From: a virus
DNA: 64,000 nucleotides
Virus record (IMG/VR): IMGVR_UViG_3300038393_002515
Strand: one strand, 5' to 3'
The position numbers and the translations under genes are program-made. Of the stretch, positions 20,438 through 61,932 are shown in pieces (positions within the stretch are counted from its first letter, which is position 1; every line of letters begins with the position of its first letter). The notes below the pieces were generated by a model. That model made no database searches, was not told the origin of the DNA, and saw nothing but the letters and a program-made list of their open reading frames with translations.

Positions 20438-20477
20438 CACCCCTCCCTCGGCCCCTCAAGGGGCGGAAGGAGGGGTG
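20438..20477 (+). promoter_or_regulatory. Late motif copy: 9-bp hairpin CACCCCTCC/GGAGGGGTG enclosing CAAGGGGCGGA (20457-20467)
   Basis: Read directly. The 3' arm contains the SD for ATG 20484. Confidence 0.6.
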
Positions 20478-20483
20478 TTTCGC

Positions 20484-22661
20484 ATGTACGACGCCGTTGA
20501 GCCGAGCCCGTACGACTCGCTGAACATCAACGACCCGTGGGCCGACGAGGACCGCGAGCGCACGAGCGAGCCGATGCGCCCTCATGAGCGCGGCCCGCGC
20601 CGCAACCCCTCCCGTGAAGACCGTTCCGTACGTCGCCGGATGCGCCGCGCGGGCGCGCAGGAGGAGAACAGCATGCCCAGCCCTGACCGCTCCGAGCTGC
20701 TGAAGCGGATCGAGAGTGCCAAGACCTTCGACGAACAGGTCCAGCTCGTCGCCCAGCTTCACGAGCTCGACCGGCGGGCCCAGCGCACCGCCGCGCTGGA
20801 GCGCGAGGCCGACCTGGCCAACACCTCCATCCGCGAGGCGTTCACGCCGGTCATCTCCGCCACCGCGCGCGGCACCACGGCCTCCGACTGGCTGGACACC
20901 GAGGTCGCCGACGCACCGTTCGACCACGGCCAGCTGATCGCGCAGGCCGCGCTGTGGTTCAAGGACGTGCCGGACTTCGTCCGCGCCGACCGGGACGAGT
21001 TCACCGAGCAGGCCGTCGGCAAGGCCCGTCAGGTCACCTCCAGCCTCGGCGCGCAGGCAGGGACGGCCGAGGACATCTTCGTCGGCTACGCCCACTTTCT
21101 GCGTGGCCAGTCGGTCGTCGTCGAGGCCGCCTCGGGCCTGGACCAGATCCAGCAGACGACCGCGCCGGACGGCGTCACCAGCAAGCCCACGCCGCTCCCG
21201 CCCGACGCGTTCGACAACTTCGCGCCGCCGGTCGCCGACATCAACACCGCCGTCTCCGGCACGGAGACCTCCAGCGCGGCTCCGGCGATCCAGATGGCCG
21301 TCGGCGGCGGCGGGAACTCCAGCCCCGAGGTGCCCGGCGGCCACGACAGCAGCGGCCAGCTGACCGGTCCCGGCGCCGAGCCGTCCCTGTCCGGCGGTGG
21401 CGGCAACTCCTCGCCGGAGCGCGCGGGCGGCCACTCCATCTCCGGGGACGTCCCGGCGCAGGGCGGCCCTACCAACGCCGCGCCGCAGGCCGAACCGGCG
21501 CAGGAGGAGACCGAGCAGACCCAGGAGGCCGGGGACGTCTCCCAGCGGCCCAAGACGGCCGCGTCCGGCCTGCAGCAGGTCCAGCAGTCGGTCGACGTCC
21601 ACGACCAGAACCACACCACGCCGCTGCCGACCACCGTGGCCTTCCCCTGGACCATGGACGAGGGCGAGTCGGCCGACGGCATGACCGGCGAGGCCCACTA
21701 CGACCAGGGCGGCCAGGTCTCCTCCGGCCACCAGGCGCACGCCAGCCTGCAGCGGCAGGCCGACTCCTGGACCCAGCCGAACCAGATCATCGAGCCGAAC
21801 ATCGCCAACTCGCCCCGCTCCACGCCGCCTCGGAACGTGGGGCAGGCCGGTGACGGCGCGGCCGACGCCCGCGCGGCCGAGACGCAGCCTTCGTTCGGTG
21901 ACGCGCACGCCGCGCCCCAGTACACACAGGGCTACACCAGCGCTGCCCCGGCCGCGCCCGCGCAGGACGTGCCGGTGTCGATGGGCGGCGACAACGGACA
22001 GTCCCTGAAGCACCCGGCGTTCGCCTCGCGGCGCGTCGCCAGCAAGCAGGACATGCAGCACCCGGACTTCCAGAAGGGCTACAAGTACGCGGCCCGCTGG
22101 CAGGAGGGCACCCCCGTCGTGCGTCCCGGCTCTCCGGAGCTGGAAGCCGGTATCTACGCCGCCTTCACCGACCGGCCGCAGCACCGGGCGGCGTGGCTGT
22201 CCGCGCACGCGGCGCTGGCCAGTGTCGAACCGGGCCTGGGCCGCCGGATCGCCAAGCACAGGGAGCTGACCCACAAGGTGGCGGCCGCGCAGGCGCTGCC
22301 GACTGACGGCACCTACCTGCAGGTCCAGGCCGCCACCGGGATCGACCTGGACACCACCAACCCGTCCACGTCGCCGTCGCCGACCGGCGACACCCCGATC
22401 AACGGCCCCGGCAAGCCCGGCCCGCTCGCCGGACAGATGGACGCGGCCGCCCCGGCCGGTGCCGCCCCCTACAACGGCGCCGAACCGTTCGGGCAGCCGG
22501 TCGTGCCGTCCGCTCCGGCCGTTCCGCAGGGCCAGCCGGTGACCATCCCCGACAGCGGCATGGCGTCCGCCTACAACAGCGGCTCCGGCCTGTCCCCGAC
22601 GGCGGCTGCGTTCCGCCGCCAGGTTCAGGCGGGCCTCCTCGCCGAGAGGACCGGCCGATGA
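20484..22661 (+). CDS. large low-complexity protein (725 aa), possible internal virion or scaffold-type protein
   Basis: ATG 20484 follows GGAAGGAGGGG. Has an internal tandem repeat GGGGNSSPE(V/R)(P/A)GGH and shares the VAFPWTM heptapeptide with the 42844-43713 product. Confidence 0.65.
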   Translation: MYDAVEPSPYDSLNINDPWADEDRERTSEPMRPHERGPRRNPSREDRSVRRRMRRAGAQEENSMPSPDRSELLKRIESAKTFDEQVQLVAQLHELDRRAQRTAALEREADLANTSIREAFTPVISATARGTTASDWLDTEVADAPFDHGQLIAQAALWFKDVPDFVRADRDEFTEQAVGKARQVTSSLGAQAGTAEDIFVGYAHFLRGQSVVVEAASGLDQIQQTTAPDGVTSKPTPLPPDAFDNFAPPVADINTAVSGTETSSAAPAIQMAVGGGGNSSPEVPGGHDSSGQLTGPGAEPSLSGGGGNSSPERAGGHSISGDVPAQGGPTNAAPQAEPAQEETEQTQEAGDVSQRPKTAASGLQQVQQSVDVHDQNHTTPLPTTVAFPWTMDEGESADGMTGEAHYDQGGQVSSGHQAHASLQRQADSWTQPNQIIEPNIANSPRSTPPRNVGQAGDGAADARAAETQPSFGDAHAAPQYTQGYTSAAPAAPAQDVPVSMGGDNGQSLKHPAFASRRVASKQDMQHPDFQKGYKYAARWQEGTPVVRPGSPELEAGIYAAFTDRPQHRAAWLSAHAALASVEPGLGRRIAKHRELTHKVAAAQALPTDGTYLQVQAATGIDLDTTNPSTSPSPTGDTPINGPGKPGPLAGQMDAAAPAGAAPYNGAEPFGQPVVPSAPAVPQGQPVTIPDSGMASAYNSGSGLSPTAAAFRRQVQAGLLAERTGR

Positions 22662-23047
22662 GCGCTGAACTGACCGAACTTGCCGAGCTGTGGAGCCGGT
22701 TCGCCGAACAGGCCGCTGGCGCGGAGCCCGACCGGGCCAGGGGGATCTTCCTCATCAAGGCCGACGGGAGCGGCGAAATGCTGGCCGTCGACCACGAGGG
22801 CGGACTGCGGACCGCCGACTTCTCGGCCGAGAACCTGGCTTATCAGTCGGCAACCCCGCTCAAGCAGTGCATCTCGATGCTGCGGCTCATGTGCAAGGAC
22901 GCCGACCGGCCCCCCGGCCAGCGCACATACCCGCTGCCCCAGTCCATCGACCGCGTCCGGGCCCTCCTGGGCGAGGCGGGCCTGGACGCCCCCGAAGTCC
23001 ACATCTGGGAGGTCTACACGACCTCCGCCGCCGAGAAGGGCGCCTGA
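22658..23047 (+). CDS. hypothetical protein (129 aa)
   Basis: ATGA overlap with the upstream stop. Coding-like composition. Confidence 0.6.
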   Translation: MSAELTELAELWSRFAEQAAGAEPDRARGIFLIKADGSGEMLAVDHEGGLRTADFSAENLAYQSATPLKQCISMLRLMCKDADRPPGQRTYPLPQSIDRVRALLGEAGLDAPEVHIWEVYTTSAAEKGA

Positions 23048-23050
23048 GCC

Positions 23051-24948: not shown

Positions 24949-24978
24949 GCCCCCTCCGGATACCAGCCGAGAGGGGGC
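24949..24978 (+). terminator. Hairpin GCCCCCTC / GAGGGGGC (8 bp, 14-nt loop)
   Basis: Lies after the stop at 24901 and is followed by ATTGTGCTGT. Confidence 0.45.
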
Positions 24979-25008
24979 ATTGTGCTGTCCGGGGACGCTC
25001 CCGTCACC

Positions 25009-25020
25009 GTAGGGGGTGGA
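25009..25020 (+). promoter_or_regulatory. Late motif copy GTAGGGGGTGGA
   Basis: Resembles the 56683 copy. Lies 10 nt upstream of ATG 25031 and overlaps its SD. Confidence 0.45.
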
Positions 25021-25776: not shown

Positions 25777-25790
25777 CCAGCACGCCCTGT

Positions 25791-25831
25791 CTGTGGCGGC
25801 TCGTCCACCCCCAAGGGGTGAGCCACCACAG
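25791..25831 (+). promoter_or_regulatory. Late motif copy: 12-bp hairpin (11/12) CTGTGGCGGCTC/GAGCCACCACAG enclosing CCAAGGGGTGA (25811-25821)
   Basis: Read directly. The 3' arm abuts the SD GGAGGA of ATG 25840. Confidence 0.6.
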
Positions 25832-25839
25832 GAGGATTC

Positions 25840-30902: not shown

Positions 30903-30929
30903 CTGCTGTCCCGGCCCGGCGGCTCCTCC

Positions 30930-30948
30930 CCAAGGGGTGAGATCTCAC
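30930..30948 (+). promoter_or_regulatory. Late motif copy CCAAGGGGTGA overlapping the 12-nt palindrome GTGAGATCTCAC
   Basis: Read directly, 33 nt upstream of ATG 30973. Confidence 0.5.
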
Positions 30949-31842: not shown

Positions 31843-31852
31843 CACGCACGGT

Positions 31853-31890
31853 GAAGGCCCGGATTGTGATCATCCGCAATCCGGGCCTTC
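31853..31890 (+). terminator. Perfect 14-bp hairpin GAAGGCCCGGATTG / CAATCCGGGCCTTC
   Basis: Lies 11 nt after the endolysin stop, with a 10-nt loop. Confidence 0.7.
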
Positions 31891-31918
31891 GCCCTGTCTG
31901 GCATGCACGCGGCTGCCG

Positions 31919-31929
31919 CCAAGGGGTGA
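31919..31929 (+). promoter_or_regulatory. Late motif copy CCAAGGGGTGA(AGACG)
   Basis: Between the terminator and ATG 31971. Shares GGGGTGAAGACG with the 43813 copy. Confidence 0.5.
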
Positions 31930-32321: not shown

Positions 32322-32352
32322 GCCCTTGCTGTCGCTCCACCGGCGGCAGACC

Positions 32353-32363
32353 CCAAGGGCTGA
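32353..32363 (+). promoter_or_regulatory. Late motif variant CCAAGGGCTGA
   Basis: 10/11 match, 28 nt upstream of GTG 32392. Confidence 0.4.
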
Positions 32364-35642: not shown

Positions 35643-35658
35643 AAAACCGCATTTCCGT
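35642..35658 (+). repeat. 17-nt AAAAACCGCATTTCCGT, copy 2 of 2
   Basis: Exact match to 12726-12742. Confidence 0.7.
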
Positions 35659-35692
35659 CGAGCCGCCTTTCCGTTGAAGGGCGGCTCGACGG
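35655..35692. terminator. Bidirectional terminator: perfect 13-bp hairpin CCGTCGAGCCGCC / GGCGGCTCGACGG
   Basis: Sits between convergent genes (35642 + end, 35695 - end), with a 12-nt loop. Confidence 0.75.
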
Positions 35693-35694
35693 CG

Positions 35695-36267
35695 TTACAG
35701 GCCCAGCATGAAAACGGGTCCGGCAACGACGGCGCCGAGGATGGCACCGGCGATCGTCTGGGGGACGGTGTGGTCCTTGAGGTGCTGCCGAGACCAGGCC
35801 ACGAGCGGGATGAGCGCGGCGGAGAGAATCCACCAGGGGCCGTAGAGCAGGCCGAGCATGGCGAGTGCGCCCGACAGGACGGACGTGTGGAAGCTGATCT
35901 TGGTGTACTTCGTGATGGGCCACAGAAGGGCGACGGTGGCCAGCATGGCGCCGACCATGGACAGGACCGGCTTCGGGGCCCCGCCGACGACCATGAGCGT
36001 CAGGCAGGTCAGGACGGACAGGACGATGACCGGGATGACGACCATCCGGCGGGACCGCTCGGGGACGTGCCGGTCGGCGAAGGTCTTCTTCTCGCCGGTG
36101 AGGACGATGAACATGATCGGTATGACGGCGCAGAAGACTATGGCCACCGCACCCCAGCCGAGGCCGGACCAGCCGTAGTTCACGCCGACGAGCATGCACA
36201 GGACGAAGATGACGTTCTTGGGGTCGACGAAGTCGGTCAGGGCTCGTGCGGCCTGGGTGCGGGTCAC
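35695..36267 (-). CDS. PAP2-like (divergent) integral membrane protein (190 aa, ~6 TM)
   Basis: ISFHTS and WSRQHLKDHTVPQTIAGAILG resemble the PAP2 motifs PSGH and SRxxxxxHxxxD, with D replaced by Q. Overlaps the upstream gene by 4 nt. Confidence 0.55.
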   Translation of the reverse strand: MTRTQAARALTDFVDPKNVIFVLCMLVGVNYGWSGLGWGAVAIVFCAVIPIMFIVLTGEKKTFADRHVPERSRRMVVIPVIVLSVLTCLTLMVVGGAPKPVLSMVGAMLATVALLWPITKYTKISFHTSVLSGALAMLGLLYGPWWILSAALIPLVAWSRQHLKDHTVPQTIAGAILGAVVAGPVFMLGL

Positions 36268-37532
36268 GCGTGCACTCCGGTGGAAAGTCTGCGGTACATG
36301 AGCCCCAGCTGAGTCGTGTCGCGGATGGACCGGCCGACGGGGAGGAGCGTGTTCGTGGCGATGAAGGGGTCGGTGGTGCCGGTGAGAGTCGCCAGCGGCT
36401 GGATGGCCACCGGTTCGCCGTCGAACGGCTTCTCTCCGTTCCGCTTAAGCCGCATCGCTTCGCGGAGCAGGTAGGCGGCCACCGCGTGCTCCGGGAGCTT
36501 CAGCGCCCGGCCCGCAGCCCCGGCGCGGCTGTGGAGGTCCGGCGGCACGTAGTAGGCGAGGTTGAGGGCGGCATCGAGAATCTCGTTGACCCTCCTGCGA
36601 AGCCGGGTGTCCAGGTCTCGCCAGTCCCAGTACTCGCGCAGGTGGCTGGTCCGCTTGGGCCGCCGGTGTGCCGGGCAGTCGTAGATGGCGGTGGGTACCG
36701 CGTCGGTGAGGACGGCCCACAGCGGGCGCAGGTCGTTGATGGCTCCGTGGGCCTTCACTATCTCGTTCAGACGCTCCCACTTCGGGGCCGCGCCTCCGAC
36801 GACGACGAGGAGGATGCAGGTGACGAGGCAGAAGTTCGAGGTGAAGTCGACGAAGTGGTCGCCGCCGAGGAACGGTTTGTCGCACAGGCGGGTGATCAGG
36901 TACCCGGAGCGGAGGATCCCGTACGCCGAGCCGATCGAGCAGCCGAGGGCGACGACCTGCATGCCGTACTTGAAGGGGCCCGGGGCGGCGGCGCGGGCGG
37001 CGTCGAGGCACATCAGGGTCGCGCAGATCAGGCCGAAGACGAGGTAGGCGTAGAAGAGCAGGAGGTGGAGGCTGCCCCAGAGGTGGCCTGCCTGGACGAA
37101 GATGAAGTCGGCGTCGTCCTGGTTTCCCGTCCGTCGCTGGGCGAGGGGGAAGATGGCGGTGATGACGGCGATGGCGGCCCAGGTGATGATGCGTCGGGGG
37201 TTGCTGCTGATGAGCTGCCGGTAGGTGGGCTCCCGGCGGCCGTCCAACCGGCCGGGGACGACATCGGTCACCCAGTGCAGAAGGAGGGCAACGGCGGCGA
37301 TCCCCGTGAGGTGCTTGGCGAGGGTGGCGATGTCGTCCACGCCGGTGAGGTGGTAGAGGAAGTCCCCGACCGCCTGGATCTTGGTGACCATCGAGATGTC
37401 GAGGGCCAGGAAGACCATAAAGAGGGTCCGGGAGCGGGGGTTGCGGTAGGCGGCGGGTCCCCTGCGGATGACTTCCTCAGTGAGGAGGACGACGACGATC
37501 CAGGCGGGAAGATCGGAAGGTGTGGCGGGCAC
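36264..37532 (-). CDS. 422-aa polytopic membrane protein with a soluble C-terminal domain; resembles the actinobacterial MAB_1171c-type family as far as I recall
   Basis: About 8 hydrophobic segments in the N-terminal 250 aa. The C-terminal region reads LRPLWAVLTDAVP...LDTRLRRRVNEILDAALNL. The family assignment is from memory and unverified. Confidence 0.6.
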   Translation of the reverse strand: MPATPSDLPAWIVVVLLTEEVIRRGPAAYRNPRSRTLFMVFLALDISMVTKIQAVGDFLYHLTGVDDIATLAKHLTGIAAVALLLHWVTDVVPGRLDGRREPTYRQLISSNPRRIITWAAIAVITAIFPLAQRRTGNQDDADFIFVQAGHLWGSLHLLLFYAYLVFGLICATLMCLDAARAAAPGPFKYGMQVVALGCSIGSAYGILRSGYLITRLCDKPFLGGDHFVDFTSNFCLVTCILLVVVGGAAPKWERLNEIVKAHGAINDLRPLWAVLTDAVPTAIYDCPAHRRPKRTSHLREYWDWRDLDTRLRRRVNEILDAALNLAYYVPPDLHSRAGAAGRALKLPEHAVAAYLLREAMRLKRNGEKPFDGEPVAIQPLATLTGTTDPFIATNTLLPVGRSIRDTTQLGLMYRRLSTGVHA

Positions 37533-37545
37533 CGGTTCTCATCTC

Positions 37546-38157
37546 TCAGGTGTCGAGACTTGCTCTCATGTTGTTTTCGAGGAGGGTTGCCCCACGGGGG
37601 GCGTGCTTGGCCATCCAGGTCTCGGCGTAGTACCCGAAGTCCTCGGCTTTGCGTTCGCGGTCCTCGTTGCTGGTGCCGTCGGCGCGGCACTGGACGCCAG
37701 CGGCCGCGAGGGAGTCTGACAGGAGGGCCGCCGATCCGCTGCACACCCCCCTCAGGAGGCGGAGGACGGCGGCGAGGTCGAGCCGGTTGGGCTCGTCTCC
37801 GTTGACCATGTGACCAAGCTCGTGACCGAGGACGTGGTGGTACTGCACAGGCGGGATCGTGGGGTGGGCCCACACCAGGTCGGCGTCCGGGGTGGGGTAC
37901 CACATGCCGCTCGGCCCGTTCGGTGAGGTCATCCGGGAGTCGCGGCTCAGGATGAGCTTGCGGCCGCGTACCTGCTCTACATAAGCGCGCAGCAGGTCCT
38001 CAACGGTCCAGGGAGACGTGGGAAGCGCCAGTCCCGTCAGCGCCTGCCCCCAGGTCCCCTTCAGGCCGCTCCGGTTCCGCATCAGTCCCATCCAAGCCCC
38101 CAGTTGATCACTAAGGCCGCCATTTACGCCACTCAGCGTAAGGCAAGGGGCTGACAA
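37546..38157 (-). CDS. ImmA/IrrE-family zinc metallopeptidase (203 aa; alternative ATG start at 38091)
   Basis: HExxH in the typical context YHHVLGHELGHMVNGDEP. Immediately downstream of an XRE HTH gene. Confidence 0.8.
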   Translation of the reverse strand: MSAPCLTLSGVNGGLSDQLGAWMGLMRNRSGLKGTWGQALTGLALPTSPWTVEDLLRAYVEQVRGRKLILSRDSRMTSPNGPSGMWYPTPDADLVWAHPTIPPVQYHHVLGHELGHMVNGDEPNRLDLAAVLRLLRGVCSGSAALLSDSLAAAGVQCRADGTSNEDRERKAEDFGYYAETWMAKHAPRGATLLENNMRASLDT

Positions 38158-38162
38158 TGGCC

Positions 38163-38738
38163 CTACCCGGTCTGGTCCTCCTGGGCCCCCTGTAGGCCGA
38201 GCAGCGCGAGACGCAGGATGGCTCTTGCCTGCCCGGAGTCCGCCCCGTCGAGCCCTCGGAAGAGGGCGCCCATCAACGCCGTGCCCTGGGTACTCTCATC
38301 GCTACCCTCCGTAGTGCTGTCGAGCTTCTGGATGGCCTTGGCCGCTTGCACGCCGAGCTCGATGAGTTCCACTTCGCGCTCGATCTGTCTGGTTCTCTCC
38401 GTGGCGTCGGTGCCGACGCGCCAGTAGTCCGTCTCGACCCCGAAGAACAGACTGAGCGCCTCGATGATGCTGAACGGCGGGTTCGTCCGCTTGCCGTCCT
38501 TCAGGTCGCTCAGGTACTGGCGGTTGACGGCGTCGGACTCTGCTCGAATCATCTCGCACGCCTGTGCGATTTCCTCCATACTGGCACCGGCGTCCTGGAG
38601 CTCCTGGGTCACCCGCGAAATCTTCTTGTCGCGGTACAACCCTGAGGCCCTCGCGGCGATCTCACTCAACGGGTACGTCTGCCCGTCCGGTCCGCGCTTG
38701 AGGTCACGCAACTTGCGGAACTTCTCACCGAGCGGCAT
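38163..38738 (-). CDS. XRE-family helix-turn-helix transcriptional regulator (191 aa)
   Basis: The N-terminus is LGEKFRKLRDL...YPLSEIAARASG...LSDLKDGKRTNPPFSIIEALSLFFGVETDYW, a Cro/C1-type HTH. The C-terminal domain is extended. Confidence 0.8.
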   Translation of the reverse strand: MPLGEKFRKLRDLKRGPDGQTYPLSEIAARASGLYRDKKISRVTQELQDAGASMEEIAQACEMIRAESDAVNRQYLSDLKDGKRTNPPFSIIEALSLFFGVETDYWRVGTDATERTRQIEREVELIELGVQAAKAIQKLDSTTEGSDESTQGTALMGALFRGLDGADSGQARAILRLALLGLQGAQEDQTG

Positions 38739-38885: not shown

Positions 38886-39000
38886 CAGCTCAACAAACTG
38901 ACAGACCGCGAACTGACGGGGGTGACGGGGCATGGGCGCAGCGCCGACAACCGCACCGATCCCCTTCTCGTGGATCCTGTCCGGGCGCACCTGTACGTCG

Positions 39001-39013
39001 GCAAGGGGCGAAG
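39001..39013 (+). promoter_or_regulatory. Late motif variant GCAAGGGGCGAAG
   Basis: Resembles the 47690 copy (CCAAGGGGCGAAGG). Lies 23 nt upstream of GTG 39037. Confidence 0.35.
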
Positions 39014-39509: not shown

Positions 39510-39684
39510 CAAAGCGAGGTTCACGCCTCCGCTTCGGCAACAAACCGGTCGCCCAACCTGAATTGTGCCTCAACCCTTGGCCACAGGTTCCCCCTTCACG
39601 AGGCCTATACAACTCCGTATCGAACCCGTTGCCGCCAACGCCCTCCTGCCCGCCCAGCGCACGAGACCTCCTGTTCGTCACACC

Positions 39685-39745: not shown

Positions 39746-42700
39746 GTGCTGAAGTTCGCCACGGCCCAGATCATCGCCGCGTCGCTCGGCGACCAACAGC
39801 GCATCACCAGGGCGGCCCACCGCGCGGTCTTCCAGTACGAAGCGCGCCCCGGCTTCTTGTACGTACGCAGCAGGGCCATCAGTTCACGCTGCAACGACAA
39901 CTTCGACGAGTTCCCCGCCGAAGAGATCGAAAAGTCGTACAAGACCTTCGTCGGCAAGCCGGTCTTCGTGAACCACGTCAACGACAACCACCGGCGCGCC
40001 CGGGGCGTCATCATCGACGCCGCCCTCCACCGAGACCGCAACCCCGACGGCACGCCGGACACATGGGCCGAAGTCCTCATGGAAATCGACGCCGTCCGGT
40101 TCCCGAAGCTGGCCAAGGCGATCCTCGCCGGACACATCGACCGGACCTCCATGGGCTGCGACGTCGAGCGCTCCGTGTGCTCCGCCTGCGGCAACGAGGC
40201 CCGCACGCCCACCGAGTACTGCTCCCACATCCCGCACCTGAAGGGCAAGCGCATCTTCCGCGCCACCGCCAGCGGGAAGAAGGTCGGCGAGCTCGTCCGC
40301 GAGACCTGCTTCGGCCTCCGGTTCTTCGAGAACAGCGTGCTCGTCGAGCCCCCGGCGGACCCGACTGCTCATTTCCTCGGCGTGGACTCTTCCGGCCTCG
40401 GCAAGGCCGCCTCGAAGAGCGCCGCGATCGACTACTCCGCCTTCGAGGACAACGACGACCTGGAGGCGGACGACGACGGCGAGGACACCGCGCCTCAGCC
40501 GAAGCCCGCCTACCCGGCCTCGCACGCCAAGTCGCCGGTGCCGCATGTCCCGTTCGAGGGCACCACGCACGACCACCAGCGCCGCCAGGACGCGGTGCAG
40601 CACGCCCGGCCCTTCACGCCGCTCAAGCCGAGCCTCAACGGCCTGCAGGCGACGGCGGCCGCGAAGAAGCCCGCGCCCAAGGCGGCCGAGCCCGAGGTGG
40701 ACGAGTACGGCACCCCGAAGCCGAAGCGAGGCCAGCCGTACGAGCCTGCGGGAGACCACCCCTGGTACAAGCAGGTCCCGCTGCACCACTCCAACATCGT
40801 CGACCACTGGGACAAGGCCACCGACGAGGAGAAGGACTCGGGCATGCGCTGGTACAGCGACGCCCACCACGTCGCCAAGGCCATCGCCCGCCTCGACCCG
40901 CGCATCAAGACCGACGAGGAGGCCGCCCACAAGGGCGCCGGTGTCCTGTCGGCCTACAGCCCGCGCACCAACTGGCCGCAGAACATGTTCAACGCGGCCC
41001 ACTCCTTCCACCGCCAGGCCGCCGTCCGCCCTCTCAAGGACGACCCGGACAAGCCCGCCCACGTCACCACCATGGGTATGCACGCCGACAAGGCGCAGCG
41101 CATCATGGACGGCGAGCACCACCAGCCGGTCCTGAACTCGCCCAAGACGCAGGACTTCGCCCACCTCATCGAGCACGGCGGCTACGAGCCGCAGACCGAG
41201 GAGGAGAAGAAGTCCGGTGCCGAACGGCGGCACAGCGGCCGCGTGGTCATCGACCGCCACGCGCTGTCCGTGGCGGCCGGGCGCCGGATCACCGACGTCG
41301 AGAACGACGCCCACCAGGGCTTCCCCGGCGCCTCCAGCGGCAAGCACGCACGGCACTACTACGAGCACGCCGCCAACACCTACCGCAACGCGGCCGCCGC
41401 CATCTCCGAGAAGGAGGGCAAGCCGGTCGCCGCGCACCAGGTGCAGGCGGTGACCTGGCTGGTGCGCCAACGGCTCAACACCGCCGAGGACCAGGCCAAC
41501 GCGAACGCCAGCGCGAAGAACCTGGGCGCGGGCCGCAACAAGGCCGAGGAGAACATCAAGGGCCACTGGAAGGACTTCGCGGGCGAGCACACGCCGGAGC
41601 TGAAGGAAAAGGGCAACTCCCACGTGGCCAGGCTCATTGACGCCACGTACATCAACGACGACGGCACGATCCGCGCCATCGCGTACGGGGAGATCAAGGC
41701 ACCGGCCGACGTCGACACGCTCCGCGAGGAGAACTGCCCGGTCTGCGGCGACAAGGACACCTTCGACGGTATCCAGTGCCAGATCTGCGGGTTCATCAAC
41801 CCGCCCGAGCAGTTCCGTGACCCCGACCTCGACAAGGCCAAGACCCTCGACCTGCGCAAGCAGATCGTCGACCCCAGCCTCGTCGACGACAACGGCGAGC
41901 TGCAGCGTGTCAACGACGACGGCACCGGCATGCCGCAGGAAGACGGCATGCCTGGCGACGAGGAACAGCAGCTGGGCCCCGACGGTCAGCCGCTCGACGA
42001 GGACGGCCCGCAGATGGTCGACCCCGAGCAGCTCGACGAGAACGGCCTGCCGCCCTCCCCGTGGGGCGACCAGACCCTCGACGGCACGATGCAGGGTGCC
42101 CCGACCTTCTCCGACCGCAACGGCGACGGCATGATCCAGCCGGACGAGATCGACCCCGACGGCAACGTCAACGTCCAGCAGAACATGATGGTCGACCCCG
42201 AGCAGGGCGGCCAGGCAGGCCCGCGCGAGCTGCCCGGCCGCGCCAGGGACCGCACGGGCGACCCGTTCACCCCCGGCCCCGACATGCCCCGCCTCCAGGG
42301 CCCCGAAGGACCGGAAGACGGACTGGACGACGAAGACACCTTCCAGGCCGGTCCCGGCATGGGAGCTCCGCAGGAGCCGATCCTGGCGCACCCCGGCGAC
42401 TACACCGGCGACGAGAGCGAGACGCCGCACTGGTCCTGGAACAGGGACGTGGACGAGGAACCCCAGGCGCCCAACGAGGACGAGGACCCGCAAGACCCGC
42501 GTCGCCGACGCCTTGGGATGTCGGCGGCCCCGCGCACCCCGAAGGACGGACAGCCGAACGACGGCGCGCCCGACCTGAGCTGCCCCCACTGCGGATTCGG
42601 AGCGGACGCCACCGCCCCGCAGACCCAGGACATGGGCAACCCGCAAGGCGCGACCGACGGCATCGTCGCCGGAGACGTCTGCCCGAACTGCCGCAAGGCC

Positions 42701-42778
42701 CAGCTGCTCACCCCCGCCGAGCTGCAGGGCGAGTCTTCCGTCCCTCCGCCTGCTGTCCCGCAGCTGTCCCGGAGCTGA
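39746..42778 (+). CDS. 1010-aa fusion protein: N-terminal prohead-protease-like domain, central helical domain of unknown function, Asp/Pro/Gly-rich region and two C-terminal zinc ribbons
   Basis: GTG 39746 follows AGGAGGA. The N-terminal domain reads FVNHVNDNHRRARGVIIDA...IDRTSMGCDVERSVCSACGNEARTPTEYCSHIPH, which recalls T4 gp21-type prohead proteases. Also carries CPVCGDKDTFDGIQCQICG and CPHCGF...CPNCRKAQ. Confidence 0.6.
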   Translation: MLKFATAQIIAASLGDQQRITRAAHRAVFQYEARPGFLYVRSRAISSRCNDNFDEFPAEEIEKSYKTFVGKPVFVNHVNDNHRRARGVIIDAALHRDRNPDGTPDTWAEVLMEIDAVRFPKLAKAILAGHIDRTSMGCDVERSVCSACGNEARTPTEYCSHIPHLKGKRIFRATASGKKVGELVRETCFGLRFFENSVLVEPPADPTAHFLGVDSSGLGKAASKSAAIDYSAFEDNDDLEADDDGEDTAPQPKPAYPASHAKSPVPHVPFEGTTHDHQRRQDAVQHARPFTPLKPSLNGLQATAAAKKPAPKAAEPEVDEYGTPKPKRGQPYEPAGDHPWYKQVPLHHSNIVDHWDKATDEEKDSGMRWYSDAHHVAKAIARLDPRIKTDEEAAHKGAGVLSAYSPRTNWPQNMFNAAHSFHRQAAVRPLKDDPDKPAHVTTMGMHADKAQRIMDGEHHQPVLNSPKTQDFAHLIEHGGYEPQTEEEKKSGAERRHSGRVVIDRHALSVAAGRRITDVENDAHQGFPGASSGKHARHYYEHAANTYRNAAAAISEKEGKPVAAHQVQAVTWLVRQRLNTAEDQANANASAKNLGAGRNKAEENIKGHWKDFAGEHTPELKEKGNSHVARLIDATYINDDGTIRAIAYGEIKAPADVDTLREENCPVCGDKDTFDGIQCQICGFINPPEQFRDPDLDKAKTLDLRKQIVDPSLVDDNGELQRVNDDGTGMPQEDGMPGDEEQQLGPDGQPLDEDGPQMVDPEQLDENGLPPSPWGDQTLDGTMQGAPTFSDRNGDGMIQPDEIDPDGNVNVQQNMMVDPEQGGQAGPRELPGRARDRTGDPFTPGPDMPRLQGPEGPEDGLDDEDTFQAGPGMGAPQEPILAHPGDYTGDESETPHWSWNRDVDEEPQAPNEDEDPQDPRRRRLGMSAAPRTPKDGQPNDGAPDLSCPHCGFGADATAPQTQDMGNPQGATDGIVAGDVCPNCRKAQLLTPAELQGESSVPPPAVPQLSRS

Positions 42779-42843
42779 AGCGGTGAAAACCCGCCCACGG
42801 CAAGTCGTCGTGAGCTGAAACAGGCTTTGAAGGAGTAACCAGT

Positions 42844-43713: not shown

Positions 43714-43812
43714 GCCACTGAGCGCAGAGGGCCTGGCACTTACGCCAGGCCCTCTCGCATGTCCCCAGAAATTCCTTGCGGTTCGGCACTGTCTCCCACC
43801 CCATTGCCAGCG

Positions 43813-43824
43813 CCTAGGGGGTGA
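43813..43824 (+). promoter_or_regulatory. Late motif copy CCTAGGGGGTGA(AGACG)
   Basis: Intergenic, 55 nt upstream of ATG 43880. Confidence 0.45.
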
Positions 43825-45495: not shown

Positions 45496-45751
45496 TCATG
45501 CCCACTGGCTTCGGGGGCGCCGCCATAGGCTCTGGCCTTCCAGCTCGTGGGCGGTGGCTGGTGGCCATCGTGAGCCCTGGCCCCCGAAGGGGGACCAGGG
45601 TCACCGCCGGGCGTTGCGCTCGGTGTGTCGTCTGGCGGGTGACATATTCTCACCTTGGCACAGTCGGGGCGTAGTTGGAACCCCACCTTCAGTAATTCTG
45701 GCCGCTGGAGAGAATTTTGGCCATGGTCGCTGTCTCCTGGCCCGCTGAGAT

Positions 45752-45766
45752 CCTTAGGGGGTGAGG
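45752..45766 (+). promoter_or_regulatory. Late motif copy CCTTAGGGGGTGAGG (no annotated gene directly downstream)
   Basis: Followed by GAGGAGGG plus GTG 45774, which opens a 37-codon ORF. That ORF ends at the TGA of the next motif copy. Confidence 0.4.
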
Positions 45767-45877
45767 AGGGTTTGTGGTGGGCCCTCTGTGCGGCTCCGTT
45801 CTCCGGCCGCTGGGCCTCGACCCCCGGGTTCCCCCTTCCCGGGGGTCGAGTGCTGTCTGGGGTGGGGTTGGGCTGCT

Positions 45878-45887
45878 CAAGGGGTGA
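45878..45887 (+). promoter_or_regulatory. Late motif copy CAAGGGGTGA
   Basis: 33 nt upstream of ATG 45921. Confidence 0.5.
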
Positions 45888-47614: not shown

Positions 47615-47631
47615 GTTCAGCTGGTCTGGCG

Positions 47632-47659
47632 GCCCCGTCCCACGACTCCGGGACGGGGC
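47632..47659 (+). terminator. Perfect 10-bp hairpin GCCCCGTCCC / GGGACGGGGC followed by TGCTTGCTGTT
   Basis: 18 nt after the stop at 47614. Confidence 0.65.
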
Positions 47660-47674
47660 TGCTTGCTGTTCGTG

Positions 47675-47720
47675 GCCCTCTCGCGGCCGCCAAGGGGCGA
47701 AGGCGACATGAGGAGAGGGC
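47675..47720 (+). promoter_or_regulatory. Late motif copy: 8-bp hairpin GCCCTCTC/GAGAGGGC enclosing CCAAGGGGCGA (47690-47700)
   Basis: The 3' arm overlaps the SD AGGAGAGGG of ATG 47725. Confidence 0.55.
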
Positions 47721-51812: not shown

Positions 51813-51834
51813 TCATCTGAGCCCTGCACTGTCC

Positions 51835-51876
51835 GCGCCTCCTCCGCCGCCCTCAAGGGGTGAGCAGAGGAGGCGC
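51835..51876 (+). promoter_or_regulatory. Late motif copy: perfect 10-bp hairpin GCGCCTCCTC/GAGGAGGCGC enclosing CAAGGGGTGA (51854-51863)
   Basis: The 3' arm is the SD GAGGAGG of GTG 51878. Confidence 0.65.
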
Positions 51877-53274: not shown

Positions 53275-53285
53275 GGAGCTGTCCG

Positions 53286-53323
53286 GCCCGCCTCTCGCAC
53301 CCCAAGGGGTGACGGAGGAGGGC
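53286..53323 (+). promoter_or_regulatory. Late motif copy: 9-bp hairpin (8/9) GCCCGCCTC/GAGGAGGGC enclosing CCAAGGGGTGA (53302-53312)
   Basis: The 3' arm overlaps the SD GGAGGAGGG of ATG 53328. Confidence 0.55.
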
Positions 53324-53327: not shown

Positions 53328-54083
53328 ATGACCTTGGTGTGGTCGCAGATCATTCGGCTGAGCCAGTGGGGCGACGACTGGGCGCCGAAGGACAGCGACG
53401 AGGACGTCCACCCGGGCGAGATCGAGAGTCACCGGGGCAGCTGGGAGCTGAACCAGCATCATGTCAACCGGCTGGCCGACTCCATCCGGCAGCACGGCTA
53501 CAGCCCGGAGCGGCACGGCGTGCTGGGGTGGAACTTCCACCAGGGCGGCGAGAACGTCTACAACCACGCCTCGGGCACCGAGACCGACCCCAACGACCAC
53601 CTGCACCACGAGCATCTGCTGCAGGCGCTCAAGGACGTCGGGCACGGCCCGGTACGGGTGCACATCCACGATCAAGACTCGGACGAGCGCGGCAACTCGC
53701 CTCGGTACTACCACGGCACCACGGTCGAGGATCTCAAAGAGGTCAAGCCCAACCACAGCACGCGGGGCTCCTTCGGGAACAACGGAGCGATCCACGAGCC
53801 GGGCTACGCCTACGCCACCAGCCGCGAGAACGCTGAGAGCTACGCCGAGAGCAAGGCCGAAATCCATGGCGGTCGCCCTCTCGTCTACCGCGTCTCGCCG
53901 CTGGGTCCGGTCGAGAAGGACCCTTCGCACGACGCGCAGGGGCGCAGCAGGGCTAACTACGAATCGGACGTCCGGTCCAAGCACGGCTTCCAGGTCCTGG
54001 ACCACGTCTGGTCCGGCGAGCACCCGGACGGCGACGAGGCATGGCACGACGATGAGGATGATTACGACGGCGGGTGGCACTGA
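53328..54083 (+). CDS. two-domain protein (251 aa): N-terminal ParB-like segment plus C-terminal Arr-like (rifampin ADP-ribosyltransferase family) domain
   Basis: PRYYHGTTVEDL...PGYAYATSRENAESYAE...GGRPLVYRVSPLGPVEKDPS aligns by eye to the Arr pattern FYHGT...IYF(S/T)...A.WGAELA...GRGYIYIVEPTGPFEDDPN, covering the H, Y and D catalytic positions. Confidence 0.6.
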   Translation: MTLVWSQIIRLSQWGDDWAPKDSDEDVHPGEIESHRGSWELNQHHVNRLADSIRQHGYSPERHGVLGWNFHQGGENVYNHASGTETDPNDHLHHEHLLQALKDVGHGPVRVHIHDQDSDERGNSPRYYHGTTVEDLKEVKPNHSTRGSFGNNGAIHEPGYAYATSRENAESYAESKAEIHGGRPLVYRVSPLGPVEKDPSHDAQGRSRANYESDVRSKHGFQVLDHVWSGEHPDGDEAWHDDEDDYDGGWH

Positions 54084-54718
54084 TGTACATCACCCGGGTC
54101 AAGGCCCTCGCCATCGAGGCGCTGCAGGCGGTCTTCGACAGCCAGTATCCCGTGACGGAGTTCCGGGGTCTGCACTGCTCGCTGGAGTACCCGGTCGAGA
54201 AGTCGTCGTTCCCCGAGGTCTGGGTGCGCTACAACGACACCGGCCCGCTGCGGCGGGCGGGCGTCTCACACGTCGAGGACACCGATCCGGGTGACGGTGG
54301 CCGGGTGCCGCCGTACACGCGTTTCCGGTTCGAGGGCTCCTGGGAGTTCGTTGTCGTCGCGCTGTCGAGCGTGGAGCGGGACCGGGTCTACGACGAGCTG
54401 GTCGCGACGATCGCCTTCTCCGGCTTCGATCCGTTGCGCAGCCGGTTCCGGTCGTACCTGGAGAACAACGACCTGATCGACCTGACAATCCGGACGGACG
54501 AGATCGAGTCGACCGGCGAGTCGGCTGAGCCGGGCACGCCGTGGGGGACGGACGAGGTCGTCTACGAGCGGACGTTGGCCATCGACCTGATCGGGGACTT
54601 CACGCCGGACCCGATGCAGGCCGGAGTGATCGTGCCTCTGTCGAAGATCGTGGTCACGCCGACCGCCGACCCCACCCTCGACGACCTCAGCGACAGCGGC
54701 TTCGACTCCTGGCACTGA
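54083..54718 (+). CDS. virion or tail-proximal protein (211 aa)
   Basis: ATGA overlap at 54083. Lies just upstream of the sheath gene. Function inferred from position only. Confidence 0.55.
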   Translation: MYITRVKALAIEALQAVFDSQYPVTEFRGLHCSLEYPVEKSSFPEVWVRYNDTGPLRRAGVSHVEDTDPGDGGRVPPYTRFRFEGSWEFVVVALSSVERDRVYDELVATIAFSGFDPLRSRFRSYLENNDLIDLTIRTDEIESTGESAEPGTPWGTDEVVYERTLAIDLIGDFTPDPMQAGVIVPLSKIVVTPTADPTLDDLSDSGFDSWH

Positions 54719-54720
54719 GA

Positions 54721-54966
54721 TCAGGACCCTAGCGATCCGCCTTCGTTCTCCCAGACCTCCACCATCGTCCTCCAGGAGGCTTCCTTGCGCCTTCGCTTCG
54801 AGCGGTTCAGAGTGTGCCACCAGCCACATACGCACTGGTAGGGCTTGTGGACGTCGCCGTCCCTCTCGTGTAGCTCCTGGCACTTCAGGAGAGCCAAGTC
54901 CTTGCTGAACTTCCGCTTCTTCGTCGGGCATGGAACGTACCGCCTGCGCCCACCTCTCCTCGCCAT
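54721..54966 (-). CDS. small basic protein (81 aa) with a CxCGWWH motif and a WENEGG tail, on the opposite strand inside the tail module
   Basis: Reads MARRGGRRRYVPCPTKKRKF...KPYQCVCGWWHTLNRSKRRRKE...WENEGGSLGS. Codon third positions are mostly G/C. Flanked by a 19-nt direct repeat. Confidence 0.55.
   Translation of the reverse strand: MARRGGRRRYVPCPTKKRKFSKDLALLKCQELHERDGDVHKPYQCVCGWWHTLNRSKRRRKEASWRTMVEVWENEGGSLGS
54722..54740. repeat. Direct repeat copy 1: CAGGACCCTAGCGATCCGC
   Basis: 18/19 identical to 54969-54987. Overlaps the stop codon and last codons of the minus-strand ORF. Confidence 0.75.
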
Positions 54967-54968
54967 GC

Positions 54969-54987
54969 CAGGACTCTAGCGATCCGC
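54969..54987. repeat. Direct repeat copy 2: CAGGACTCTAGCGATCCGC
   Basis: Lies immediately upstream (minus sense) of the start at 54966. On the minus strand it reads GCGGATCGCTAGAGTCCTG, with TAGAGT ending 6 nt before the ATG. This is a leaderless-type promoter geometry. Confidence 0.75.
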
Positions 54988-55006
54988 TCCTGTCCACCGC
55001 CGCCCC

Positions 55007-55031
55007 GTCAGCCCAAGGGGTGACAGCTGAC
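55007..55031 (+). promoter_or_regulatory. Late motif copy: 6-bp hairpin GTCAGC/GCTGAC enclosing CCAAGGGGTGA (55013-55023)
   Basis: Read directly, 28 nt upstream of ATG 55052. Confidence 0.55.
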
Positions 55032-55051
55032 CGACGCGACTGGTGGGTGGC

Positions 55052-56578: not shown

Positions 56579-56622
56579 GCCCGCGCGACAGGCGCTGTGA
56601 CGGGCCGCCTGCCGCGCTCTTG

Positions 56623-56656
56623 GAGGACCCCCGGTGTGAGGGCGCCGGGGGTCCTC
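56623..56656 (+). terminator. Perfect 12-bp hairpin GAGGACCCCCGG / CCGGGGGTCCTC
   Basis: 45 nt after the sheath stop, with a 10-nt loop. Followed by TGCTGT. Confidence 0.65.
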
Positions 56657-56680
56657 TGCTGTCCGTGGTCGCCCTCCCCG

Positions 56681-56702
56681 CCGTAGGGGGTGAGACCTAC
56701 GG
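56681..56702 (+). promoter_or_regulatory. Late motif copy: 7-bp hairpin CCGTAGG/CCTACGG overlapping GTAGGGGGTGA (56683-56693)
   Basis: 24 nt upstream of ATG 56718. Confidence 0.5.
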
Positions 56703-60297: not shown

Positions 60298-60300
60298 GCC

Positions 60301-60960: not shown

Positions 60961-61181
60961 TGGCCAACCAGTGGGGCGCCGACGTGCCCGTCTCCATGCC
61001 GCAGCCGCTGCGCGCCGACCAGAAGGCCATCGTGCCCATGGGCGGCTTCGTGATGACCCTCGACGGCCTCTTCCCGGACATGTCCGCCGCCGACCACGAG
61101 CGGCTCGCCACGCCCTCCTACGCCCCCTACAACCCGCACCGGCCGGTCCAGGAGACGATCCCCGACCCCGAGGAGGAGTGA
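60960..61181 (+). CDS. small tail-module protein (73 aa)
   Basis: GTG overlaps the TAG by 1 nt, with SD AAGGAGGA upstream. Confidence 0.5.
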   Translation: MANQWGADVPVSMPQPLRADQKAIVPMGGFVMTLDGLFPDMSAADHERLATPSYAPYNPHRPVQETIPDPEEE

Positions 61182-61184
61182 GCC

Positions 61185-61838
61185 GTGGCCGACACCCGCA
61201 AGGGCCTGAACTGCACGCTCACCTACCCCAAGGACGGAACGAACCACACCTTCCGGGTGCGCGCCGACGTCCTCGGCCACGGCATGACGATGGTCGCCGA
61301 CTCCTCCAGCGCACGGAACGCGCGCGCGTACTACCCGCACCGGCCGACCCCGTCCCGCTTCTACCTGCGGGTGCTGCTCAAGGGGTACAGCGAACGGAAG
61401 GCGTTCGCCGACTGGATGCAGGGCTACGCGAACTTCGTCATGAACCCCGGCCTGCCCGCCGGAGACAAGTTCCCCGACATGCGAGTACTCCTCCCCGCCC
61501 GGGGCTTCGACCGGGAAGGTGTGCCGCTGTCGGGCTTCGAGTGGGGCAACACGGTGGGAGCCATGGTGTGGACGCCGGTCATCACGTTCGAGTGCACCCG
61601 GGAGCCGCAGGACACCGAGTCCTGGGCGCCGAGCAAGTTCGTGGACGCCAAGGACCCGGACATGAAGTACTTCTGGCCCATGGGCACACAGCTCGGCGGC
61701 AACGCGGTCCCGTCCGGCAACTACCAGACCATCGACCCCAGCAGCGACGGCGGCTCCGACCCCGGCCAGACCGAGCCCAGCACCCCAATGCCCAACGAGG
61801 GCACCCCGCCGAACGAGCGGTACGACTACGGGAACTAG
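61185..61838 (+). CDS. tail or baseplate protein (217 aa)
   Basis: GTG follows GAGGAGGAG. Function inferred from position only. Confidence 0.55.
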   Translation: MADTRKGLNCTLTYPKDGTNHTFRVRADVLGHGMTMVADSSSARNARAYYPHRPTPSRFYLRVLLKGYSERKAFADWMQGYANFVMNPGLPAGDKFPDMRVLLPARGFDREGVPLSGFEWGNTVGAMVWTPVITFECTREPQDTESWAPSKFVDAKDPDMKYFWPMGTQLGGNAVPSGNYQTIDPSSDGGSDPGQTEPSTPMPNEGTPPNERYDYGN

Positions 61839-61894
61839 GCCTTGACGGGAATAGGCCGACACACTGGTCATCCTTCCAGAAGCCTCACTGTGAA

Positions 61895-61932
61895 GAGACC
61901 TCTTTCGCCCACCAAGGGGCGGAGGTGGTCTC
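61895..61932 (+). promoter_or_regulatory. Late motif copy: hairpin GAGACC/GGTCTC enclosing CCAAGGGGCGGA (61912-61923)
   Basis: The 3' arm abuts GTG 61933. The SD GGAGGTGG lies inside the structure. Confidence 0.5.

Follow-up and report, generated by a model that had tools for sequence, protein, structure and literature searches.

A bipartite intergenic element with the features of a late promoter, and co-evolving hairpins in its spacer, in a family of Streptomyces phage-plasmids

A short G-rich motif recurs between the late genes of the virus record IMGVR_UViG_3300038393_002515 (IMG/VR), of which a stretch of 64,000 nucleotides (nt), referred to here as the window, was analysed. What does this motif do? 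An initial annotation had listed 18 copies, placed them in covarying hairpins that cover the Shine-Dalgarno sequence (SD) of the next gene, and offered three explanations: a late promoter, an RNA operator that masks or unmasks the SD, or a standby site for ribosome loading. Our analysis indicates that the motif is one half of a bipartite element. This element is probably a late-class promoter, in which masking hairpins at junctions between abutting genes would add a second layer of control.

Two boxes at a fixed distance

The element consists of (C/A)TGTC, 20 ± 1 nt of other sequence, and YARGGGG(T/C)G(A/G), so that boxes of 5 and 10 nt span 35 bp; the consensus form is CTGTC, about 20 free bases, and CAAGGGGTGA. 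Only the 3′ half had been described originally, and its suspected enrichment in intergenic DNA was borne out. For the 11-mer with up to one mismatch, 11 occurrences compare with an expectation of 1.02. The 3′ box, [CT]A[AG]GGGG[TC]G[AG], occurred 15 times in + strand intergenic DNA, never in + strand coding sequence (CDS) and twice on the − strand, with an expectation of 0.23 in shuffled intergenic DNA. When both boxes were scored together (CTGT[CTG]-N19-21-[CT]A[AG]GGG[GC]), 16 matches were found in the 6.3 kb of + strand intergenic DNA, and none in 57.7 kb of CDS or on the − strand (0.03 expected from dinucleotide shuffles of intergenic DNA). The distance from the start of CTGTC to A[AG]GGGG was 26 in 12 of these 16 sites, 25 in two and 27 in two. 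As for a sigma-type promoter, all 16 canonical sites were intergenic, co-oriented with the downstream genes and spaced by 20 ± 1. The motif is thereby confirmed as genuine, far beyond chance.

A scan with a position weight matrix (PWM) gave scores of 18.6–32.2 for members, compared with a maximum of 15.3 in shuffled DNA and 7.6 for the best − strand site. It added three + strand sites to the 16, at 17975, 39671 and 42753, the first and last of which had gone unnoticed. The set comprises 16 canonical copies, two near-canonical ones (17975 and 39671) and one decayed one (42753), and heads about 19 gene groups. All copies lie on the + strand and all are intergenic save 42753, the 5′ box of which is in the last codons of the upstream gene. 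Seventeen of the 18 copies first listed belong to this one element. The other, 50711, lacks a 5′ box at the appropriate spacing, and what relatives conserve of it is just an SD, AAGGGGT-N8-ATG. Copies were found 19–65 nt from the start codon, not 5–55 nt as first stated, and the copy listed at 45752 has no open reading frame (ORF) downstream; most copies are followed by a separate canonical SD 15–55 nt further downstream. Hexamers of the HrdB type (TTGACN-N16-18-TAGAPuT-like) were sought at the element sites with no consensus match, and the searchable literature returned only coincidental primer matches to the motif sequence.

The window has a G+C content of 68% and is coded almost wholly on the + strand. 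No close relative was found among the deposited phages of the phage collection, DNA matches being confined to ThyX, and the sheath protein is only ∼29% identical to that of cluster C mycobacteriophages (Myrna). Sheath identities of 76–96% were found in uncultivated viral genomes of ∼155 kb and in separate ∼156-kb contigs of Streptomyces isolate assemblies. The relative pRLB1-9.1 (NZ_CP041653.1; L170 in our set) is a circular replicon of 154,158 bp from Streptomyces sp. RLB1-9, was deposited as a ‘plasmid’, and has a sheath 96% identical to that of the window. It carries head, tail and lysis genes together with ParA, recombinases, a DnaB-like helicase and Pol III alpha. Because one circular replicon combines ParA and replication genes with head, tail and lysis genes, the window's family is one of undescribed, contractile-tailed Streptomyces phage-plasmids of ∼155 kb. 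In the literature pRLB1-9.1 is discussed solely as a plasmid, frequently lost in crosses.

Conservation was measured in 12 groups of orthologous regions, which were delimited with BLAST and aligned blind to the motif. Relative to the window, identity was 0.97 for CTGTC and 0.95 for the 3′ box, but 0.60–0.62 for the spacer, the length of which was kept. The upstream flank scored 0.67, and the leader, in which conservation starts at the 3′ box, 0.81. A PWM scan of pRLB1-9.1 identified 20 sites, every one of them on the + strand. Nineteen of them fall in a single 55-kb block, running from 118.5 kb through the origin to 19.2 kb, which spans the dCTP deaminase gene through the baseplate and fibre genes and includes the head, tail and lysis genes. 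A distant clade of high G+C (tail protein 54–61% identical) keeps (C/A)TGTC-N20-(G/C)AAGGGGTG(A/G), on the coding strand only; no copies were found in the low-G+C relatives examined. The lone pRLB1-9.1 copy outside the late block, at 71163, is upstream of an 82-residue ORF and adjoins a divergently transcribed cluster for a ribosomally synthesised and post-translationally modified peptide of the ATP-grasp type (tgmA/MvdC-like).

Early promoters belong to a separate class, TTGAC(T/C)-N18-TAGGGT, with a perfect palindrome, GCATC-N4-GATGC, in the spacer. They were located at 5256 (−), 7777, 11901 and 13580 (+) in the window and at 1244, 3360, 5447, 6985 and 8410 in L134; both the early region and the 10 kb upstream of the window carry this class. 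The bipartite element is absent from them. Likewise, the TTGAC...TAGRNT class of pRLB1-9.1 occurs only at 77.8–97 kb, disjoint from the element block. The palindrome is probably the operator of an immunity repressor; only one other IMG/VR contig carries the exact operator sequence, which is therefore lineage-specific. A housekeeping-type promoter was also sought on the + strand between 40 and 60 kb, with no match.

Six strong terminator hairpins precede copies of the element, at 24950–24977, 31850–31893, 43726–43755, 45816–45850, 47628–47663 and 56621–56658 (all +). They stand directly upstream of copies 24985, 31894, 43789, 45853, 47666 and 56659, so that the terminator–motif–gene unit described in the initial annotation was recovered. 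The stems are perfect, 10–17 bp long, with energies of −26 to −38 kcal/mol and without U-tracts; an E. coli-type terminator scan was uninformative at 68% G+C. The six copies lie 0–33 nt downstream of the terminators, ahead of highly expressed late genes that include those for the major head protein, the sheath and the tail operon. In the 60–90 nt between terminator and gene, where a promoter must lie, the two boxes are the sole conserved sequence.

One copy, 45730–45764 (+), is followed by a candidate small RNA, 45765–45852 (+), of 82–92 nt, with three hairpins of which the last is the terminator. This segment is conserved in nine relatives with frame-breaking indels of 1–3 nt, and therefore cannot be coding. 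Its terminator stem carries three compensatory pairs, and four invariant U-G pairs indicate that it folds in the + sense only. At the gathering score, the Rfam 15 covariance models had no matches in the window, small RNA and element included, and a tRNA scan of the window returned nothing. The arrangement suggests that copy 45730 may drive the small RNA. Because a non-coding unit without an ORF follows it, this copy would be explained by a promoter, and not by an SD operator or a standby site.

Hairpins between spacer and leader

In minimum free energy (MFE) structures, which contain the stems listed originally, each hairpin is long and interrupted, with its apex at the YAR of the 3′ box; the 3′ box itself is base-paired. 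The spacer supplies the 5′ arm and the leader the 3′ arm, which usually overlies the SD. RNA that starts after the 3′ box is predicted to be nearly unstructured. To separate a hairpin signal from G+C richness, spacers were swapped between sites. Cognate spacer and leader folded at −31.4 kcal/mol and swapped combinations at −25.6 kcal/mol (5.8 kcal/mol more stable, permutation p < 5 × 10−5), and 11 of the 16 sites ranked 0–1. The swap effect was replicated in diverged relatives at 20458, 25813, 30932, 51829 and 53279 (z about −3 to −4). At the terminator-preceded sites of the relatives it was absent, with the boxes equally conserved. Overall, a cognate hairpin effect was observed at about half of the sites, and the remainder keep both boxes. 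The covarying hairpins described originally are thus present, but at a subset of copies.

The strongest hairpin was analysed at 51829, where GCGCCTCCTC and GAGGAGGCGC form the arms in the window, compared with ACGCCCTCCCAAC and GTTGGGAGGGCGT in the relative L130. Across eight orthologues, 94.7% of cells were paired, against ∼50% in slid-partner controls, and seven pairs had changed on both sides, which was reached in 0 of 500 shuffles. The stem is under selection, and the arms co-evolve with their own leader. The same could be seen at 30906, where the arms in four relatives are CCTCCC, GGGTTCC, GGCCCTCC and CCCTCCC, each of which fits its own leader. Predicted accessibility of the ribosome-binding site (RBS) was 0.32 in read-through RNA, 0.52 in RNA starting after the box (p = 3 × 10−4) and 0.40 with a non-cognate spacer (p = 0.004).

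The presence of a hairpin was related to the arrangement of the genes. In pRLB1-9.1, with PGAP gene calls, sites were classed a priori as abutting if the upstream stop codon was ≤20 nt from the 5′ box. The eight abutting sites gave z = −3.75, −4.68, −3.17, +0.69, −3.40, −4.16, −7.10 and −4.18; seven of the eight are thus between −3.2 and −7.1, whereas the other 12 sites are mostly near 0 (Mann–Whitney p = 0.0011; Spearman rho 0.65, p = 0.0018). Three abutting sites of pRLB1-9.1 beyond the range of the window all rank 0. The association is significant only with the distance-to-stop criterion in this annotated relative, and a clean separation of hairpin classes within the window (p = 0.002) rested on post-hoc classification.

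The promoter candidates ahead of the tail sheath gene illustrate the relation. In pRLB1-9.1 this copy directly adjoins the upstream ORF, with a stem of 13 bp (z = −4.2). In the window the copy (54990–55023, +; sheath gene at 55052) is separated from the upstream ORF by an insertion of ∼270 nt, and the stem is reduced to 6 bp. The pair is, in effect, a natural experiment for hairpin against gene arrangement. The insertion, in the 333-nt gap 54719–55051 after gene 54083–54718, holds an 81-residue − strand ORF at 54721–54966 (external caller) and is absent from pRLB1-9.1.

A probable late promoter and its alternatives

A pair of short boxes held at constant spacing, with unconstrained sequence between them, suggests recognition of duplex DNA by a factor with two domains, such as sigma. 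Among the three options first offered, the late promoter is best supported, through the second box, the footprint, the confinement to virion and lysis genes, and the separate early promoter class. In this sigma-type signal (C/A)TGTC would be a −35-like and YARGGGG(T/C)G(A/G) a −10-like box, 20 ± 1 bp apart, and RNA polymerase would be directed to it by a specificity factor distinct from the housekeeping sigma of the host. Each copy would stand at the head of a transcription unit in the block of virion, lysis and nucleotide-metabolism genes, with one heading the small RNA. The predicted transcription start is only a few nucleotides past the 3′ box; with the invariant A of YAR set to −11, CTGTC would fall at about −37 to −33 and the start 2–3 nt after the box. 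At abutting junctions, selection appears to have favoured spacers complementary to the leader that follows, usually with its SD. RNA entering from upstream would form the long hairpin, in which the RBS is masked, and the hairpin may also stop such RNA. Promoter-initiated RNA would lack the 5′ arm and be translatable. As the origin of the transcript alone would switch the mask, a trans-acting RNA-binding regulator is not required. Promoter activity, the start site of transcription, the nature of the factor, the existence of read-through RNA and the effect on translation are all inferred in this scheme.

A precedent for the mask is found in phage T4. In its genes e (lysozyme), soc, 49 and I-TevI, a late promoter is within the DNA for the 5′ strand of an RBS-sequestering hairpin (PMC3014915), such that longer transcripts from upstream are masked and promoter-initiated ones are open (McPheeters et al. 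1986, reviewed in PMC3014915). As for T4 gene e, the SD is paired in silico with sequence upstream of the late start, including at the endolysin gene here (30906). A mask of the T4 type was found in silico at most hairpin-class sites, the sheath site of pRLB1-9.1 and the portal site being exceptions. The systems differ in extent, a handful of genes in T4 against roughly half of the ∼20 promoters here, and in the late promoter, which in T4 has a single −10-type box (TATAAATA) that gp55 recognises. In the present genomes, as judged from sequence, the 5′ arm is in the spacer between two boxes, tracks abutment and co-evolves with its partner. The element, as we read it, combines an alternative-factor phage late promoter with a T4-type, promoter-embedded RBS mask. 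What is new is an arm within the spacer of a bipartite promoter that recurs across the regulon and tracks gene arrangement.

Bipartite promoters are read by alternative sigma factors such as those of the extracytoplasmic function (ECF) group, gp28 and gp33/34 of the B. subtilis phage SPO1, and gp36 of phiEco32 and 7-11. The element resembles alternative and phage sigma promoters (PMC8948821) in its two short boxes, fixed spacer, co-orientation with genes, and a temporal class apart from host-type early promoters. Its 20-nt spacer is at the long end for such promoters.

Several observations weigh against a late promoter with masking hairpins. The −10-like box is G-rich, without the usual T at −7. 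Pfam and PHROGs scans of the ∼90 window proteins identified no full sigma factor or RNA polymerase, with a weak region-4 match only, and the PGAP product names of the complete pRLB1-9.1 include no full-length sigma factor or phage RNA polymerase. We also know of no promoter consensus, those of alternative and phage sigma factors included, that CTGTC and YARGGGGTGA would fit. With regard to the hairpins, the claim that the 3′ arm covers the downstream SD usually holds but fails at the portal site and at the pRLB1-9.1 sheath site. Although it abuts an ORF, the block's first promoter (17975; 118504 in pRLB1-9.1) lacks a hairpin. Within the window, the hairpin signal was uncorrelated with upstream structure, measured as the MFE of the preceding 60 nt (p = 0.59), and the sense strand was only marginally more stable than the antisense strand (p = 0.052).

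A possible account of the second layer, although one that we would not expect to prevail, is that the hairpins are compact terminators or insulators that overlap the next promoter and guard against read-through and promoter occlusion. The promoter would be kept, and masking would be compatible. Such insulators predict the same association with abutting junctions, the genuine terminators here also lack U-tracts and have the CTGTC box directly after them, and the two 3′ arms without an SD would be accommodated. However, the 3′ arm is the SD itself in five of the seven strongest sites, and accessibility falls specifically with the cognate spacer. The hairpins are also long and interrupted with a structured apex, unlike the perfect 10–17 bp stems of the terminators.

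It seems unlikely that the element as a whole acts in RNA, with CUGUC and CAAGGGGUGA as signals for a phage RNA-binding protein, whether for a translational operator by which the SD hairpin is opened or closed, or for an endoribonuclease that, like RNase III between T7 genes, would separate the 3′ hairpin upstream from the leader downstream. G-U pairs are tolerated in the co-evolving hairpins, their apex is always in the SD-like 3′ box, and the upstream terminator-like hairpins could be 3′ stabilisers left after cleavage. A fixed linear distance with free spacer sequence and variable structure is nevertheless the signature of duplex DNA, and the boxes are equally conserved at hairpin-less sites. 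Should the upstream hairpins act as terminators, no RNA would arrive at the element at those sites, and the housekeeping-type scan (+ strand, 40–60 kb) left the block without other promoter candidates. Copy 45730, moreover, has no ORF, and there was no Rfam family match. Of the SD mask proposed originally, the hairpins themselves stand, and they usually lower predicted RBS accessibility; as an account of the element it falls short, since they occupy a subset of sites, the boxes persist without them, and one copy has no ORF.

Less probable still is a DNA-binding site for a regulator, either a stoperator-like repressor site or an activator site beside an unrecognised promoter. The element is asymmetric, in one orientation, in short intergenic regions and present in ∼20 copies per genome, like stoperators, and maintenance as a circular plasmid-prophage would demand that late genes stay silent. 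The stoperators of cluster A phages comprise more than 20 asymmetric sites in short intergenic spaces, oriented with transcription. They are single contiguous 13-mers to which a monomeric two-domain repressor binds, and early promoters also contain them as operators (PMC9283540). Two dissimilar boxes 20 bp apart over 35 bp instead fit −35/−10 geometry, and the element is missing from the early promoters, which carry their own, different palindromic operator. Identity with stoperators was rejected on these grounds. Units behind terminators would in any case still need a promoter, and no other conserved sequence is available there.

A standby ribosome-loading site or translational enhancer is hardly credible: GGGGUGA is able to pair with the 3′ end of 16S rRNA, and true SD-position relatives occur at 9319 and 9838, as recognised from the start, and at 50711, but CTGTC at a fixed spacing would be unexplained, as would the copies 40–65 nt from the start codon that have an SD of their own, most copies have a canonical SD further downstream, the unit headed by copy 45730 has no ORF, and the 3′ box is base-paired in the predicted read-through structure.

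Four further identities were rejected. For a nut-like antitermination site, the copies lie after terminators and not before them. Promoters of the N4 virion RNA polymerase type require a short hairpin (5–7 bp stem, 3-nt loop) at every promoter, and about half of the copies here keep both boxes without a cognate hairpin. A sigma-54 type promoter would have a GG-N10-GC architecture, which is lacking. The start-associated sequences (SAS) and extended start-associated sequences (ESAS) of cluster K phages (PMC3203893) are alike in being SD-like, asymmetric intergenic repeats of an actinophage, in one orientation and in one half of the genome. The SAS is a 13-mer that includes the SD, 3–7 bp from the start codon, in the non-structural half, and its function is unproven; the ESAS consists of 17-bp inverted repeats of conserved sequence without covariation (PMC3203893). 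By contrast, the present element belongs to the structural half, lies 19–65 nt from the start codon, and has a separate SD, a partner box 20 nt upstream and covarying arms.

Candidate readers for the putative late promoter can be named in both genomes. In pRLB1-9.1, a 130-residue protein scores above the Pfam threshold for Sigma70_r4_2, and the replication module encodes a WhiB-family protein and a GerE-type helix-turn-helix (HTH) protein. The accessions of these candidates are WP_143626633.1 for the Sigma70_r4_2 protein, WP_164331333.1 for the WhiB-like protein and WP_143626616.1 for the GerE-type protein. In the window, the only recognisable feature of a 103-residue early protein (3462–3773, +) is an HTH, EIADMFGVPLGTVRSRL, like region 4.2 of ECF sigma factors. 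Its best PDB match was region 4 of SigR (E = 0.09), and it is an orphan, with no homologue outside its own cluster in 5.8 billion proteins. No convincing DxDGD catalytic motif was identified in the large unannotated window proteins, and a PDB sequence search with the 582-, 725- and 420-residue proteins gave no match. A further reading, which we consider doubtful, would be a new kind of reader. Because the annotation of pRLB1-9.1 has only stand-alone region-4 proteins and a WhiB-like protein, CTGTC might be read by a free-standing region-4 module (a ‘split’ or appropriated sigma) and the SD-like, G-rich box by an unrecognised partner, with much of late translation gated by transcript origin via anti-SD arms in the spacers. 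If true, a design that T4 applies at few genes would be used genome-wide.

The element would define the late regulon, with the candidate small RNA, of an undescribed family of ∼155-kb Streptomyces phage-plasmids. A promoter consensus without a known reader may offer a route to a new specificity factor, possibly to an orthogonal promoter/factor pair for Streptomyces engineering. The data also suggest that promoter spacers, usually deemed free, can face strong selection for an RNA-level function of read-through transcripts, and that this selection appears to be switched on or off by local gene arrangement. Predictions are directly testable in cultured Streptomyces sp. RLB1-9, as it carries a replicon with a 96% identical sheath.

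Individual copies and neighbouring genes

Gene calls made here matched independent external calls and the PGAP annotation of the 96%-similar replicon. Small early genes occupy 1–18 kb of the window. Between 18 and 64 kb are genes for dCTP deaminase, portal (25840), a beta-helix protein, endolysin (30973), a head protease fusion (39746), cement (43880), major head protein (44427), ThyX, sheath (55052) and an NlpC/P60 tail hydrolase.

The first copy of the block, 17975–18009 (CTGTC-N20-CATGGGGTGG; PWM 21.0 against the shuffle maximum of 15.3), is upstream of the dCTP deaminase gene and keeps both boxes in L039 and pRLB1-9.1 despite a different spacer. Because this copy is conserved, the deaminase most likely starts at ATG 18027 (SD AAAGGGGA) and not at the upstream GTG at 18006. 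The preceding segment, 17630–17974, probably holds an uncalled small ORF that ends TAGTAG just before the element.

The next copies, all on the + strand as before, include some with and some without a hairpin. Copy 20432–20466, upstream of a 725-residue gene at 20484, is of the hairpin class; its spacer sequence CACCCCTCC pairs with the SD GGAGGGGTG (swap rank 0; orthologue z = −3.1 and −3.4). Copy 24985–25019 (TAGGGGGTGG), after the terminator at 24950–24977 and upstream of a gene at 25031, showed no cognate hairpin signal (swap rank 5; z = −0.6). In the hairpin-class copy 25787–25821, ahead of the portal gene (25840), TGTGGCGGCTC pairs with GAGCCACCACA, and this 3′ arm stops just 5′ of the SD (swap rank 0; mean z = −3.45 over 11 orthologues). 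Also of the hairpin class, copy 30906–30940 upstream of the endolysin gene (30973) gave z = −4.3, and −7.1 in pRLB1-9.1. The signal was weak for 31894–31929, right after the terminator at 31850–31893 and upstream of a gene at 31971 (swap rank 3; z = −0.4 both in orthologues and in pRLB1-9.1). Two copies ranked 1 in the swap test: 32329–32363 (CAAGGGCTGA), which abuts the upstream ORF and precedes a 942-residue gene at 32392, and 38977–39011 (CAAGGGGCGA), in a divergent intergenic region upstream of a gene at 39037 (z = −3.1 in pRLB1-9.1).

The two copies that follow deviate from the consensus. At 39671–39705 (CTGTT-N20-CAAGGAGCGA; PWM 20.4), upstream of the 1010-residue head-protease fusion gene (39746), the site is near-canonical, and it is canonical (CAAGGGGCGA) in the relatives L041 and L022. 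The decayed copy 42753–42786 (CTGTC-N19-GAAGCGGTGA; PWM 18.7) precedes a gene at 42844, and its 5′ box and most of its spacer are inside the last codons of the upstream gene, 39746–42778. The site is canonical (CAAGGGGTGA) in the distant relative L122.

Among the remaining copies, 43789–43824 follows the terminator at 43726–43755 and is upstream of the cement and major head protein genes. Copy 45853–45887 begins 2 nt after the terminator at 45816–45850, ahead of a gene at 45921, and had no cognate hairpin signal (swap rank 7); 47666–47700 (CTGTT...CAAGGGGCGA) is likewise 2 nt after its terminator, 47628–47663, and upstream of a gene at 47725. The strongest hairpin, that of 51829–51863, covers the SD of a gene at 51878. 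Copy 53279–53312, also of the hairpin class with its 3′ arm over the SD, is upstream of a gene at 53328 (z = −2.8 in orthologue group u2). Copy 56659–56693 comes directly after the terminator at 56621–56658 and precedes the tail gene operon (56718 onward). The last copy, 61888–61922 (CTGTG...CAAGGGGCGG; swap rank 0), is upstream of the NlpC/P60 tail hydrolase gene (61933), and its 5′ box is GTGTC or ATGTC in relatives.

Some neighbouring genes deserve mention. The 1010-residue fusion (39746–42778, +) has an N-terminal part that is ParB/RepB/Spo0J-like according to PGAP in a relative, and also carries a DUF7178 domain and a PHROGs match to a head maturation protease. The 251-residue protein encoded at 53328–54083 (+) has a sub-threshold match to rifampin ADP-ribosyltransferase (Arr; E = 2.5 × 10−4, 21.6 bits against a cutoff of 25); as speculation by analogy, it might target host RNA polymerase, as T4 Alt does. 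The sole − strand module within the late block, 35695–38738, encodes a putative transporter of the DUF6545/MAB_1171c family, a weakly PAP2-like protein and two unknown proteins. It is flanked by a bidirectional terminator (35643–35694) and by a divergent region with a TTGACA-type promoter, and looks like a moron or a prophage-expressed cassette.

A second repeat, (A)CCCGCCA, was observed in the early part of the window. It occurs in 27 copies in + strand intergenic DNA between 146 and 18647, typically 10–25 nt upstream of the SD, and in eight copies on the − strand, only three of which are intergenic. Its placement resembles that of the start-associated sequences of cluster K mycobacteriophages.

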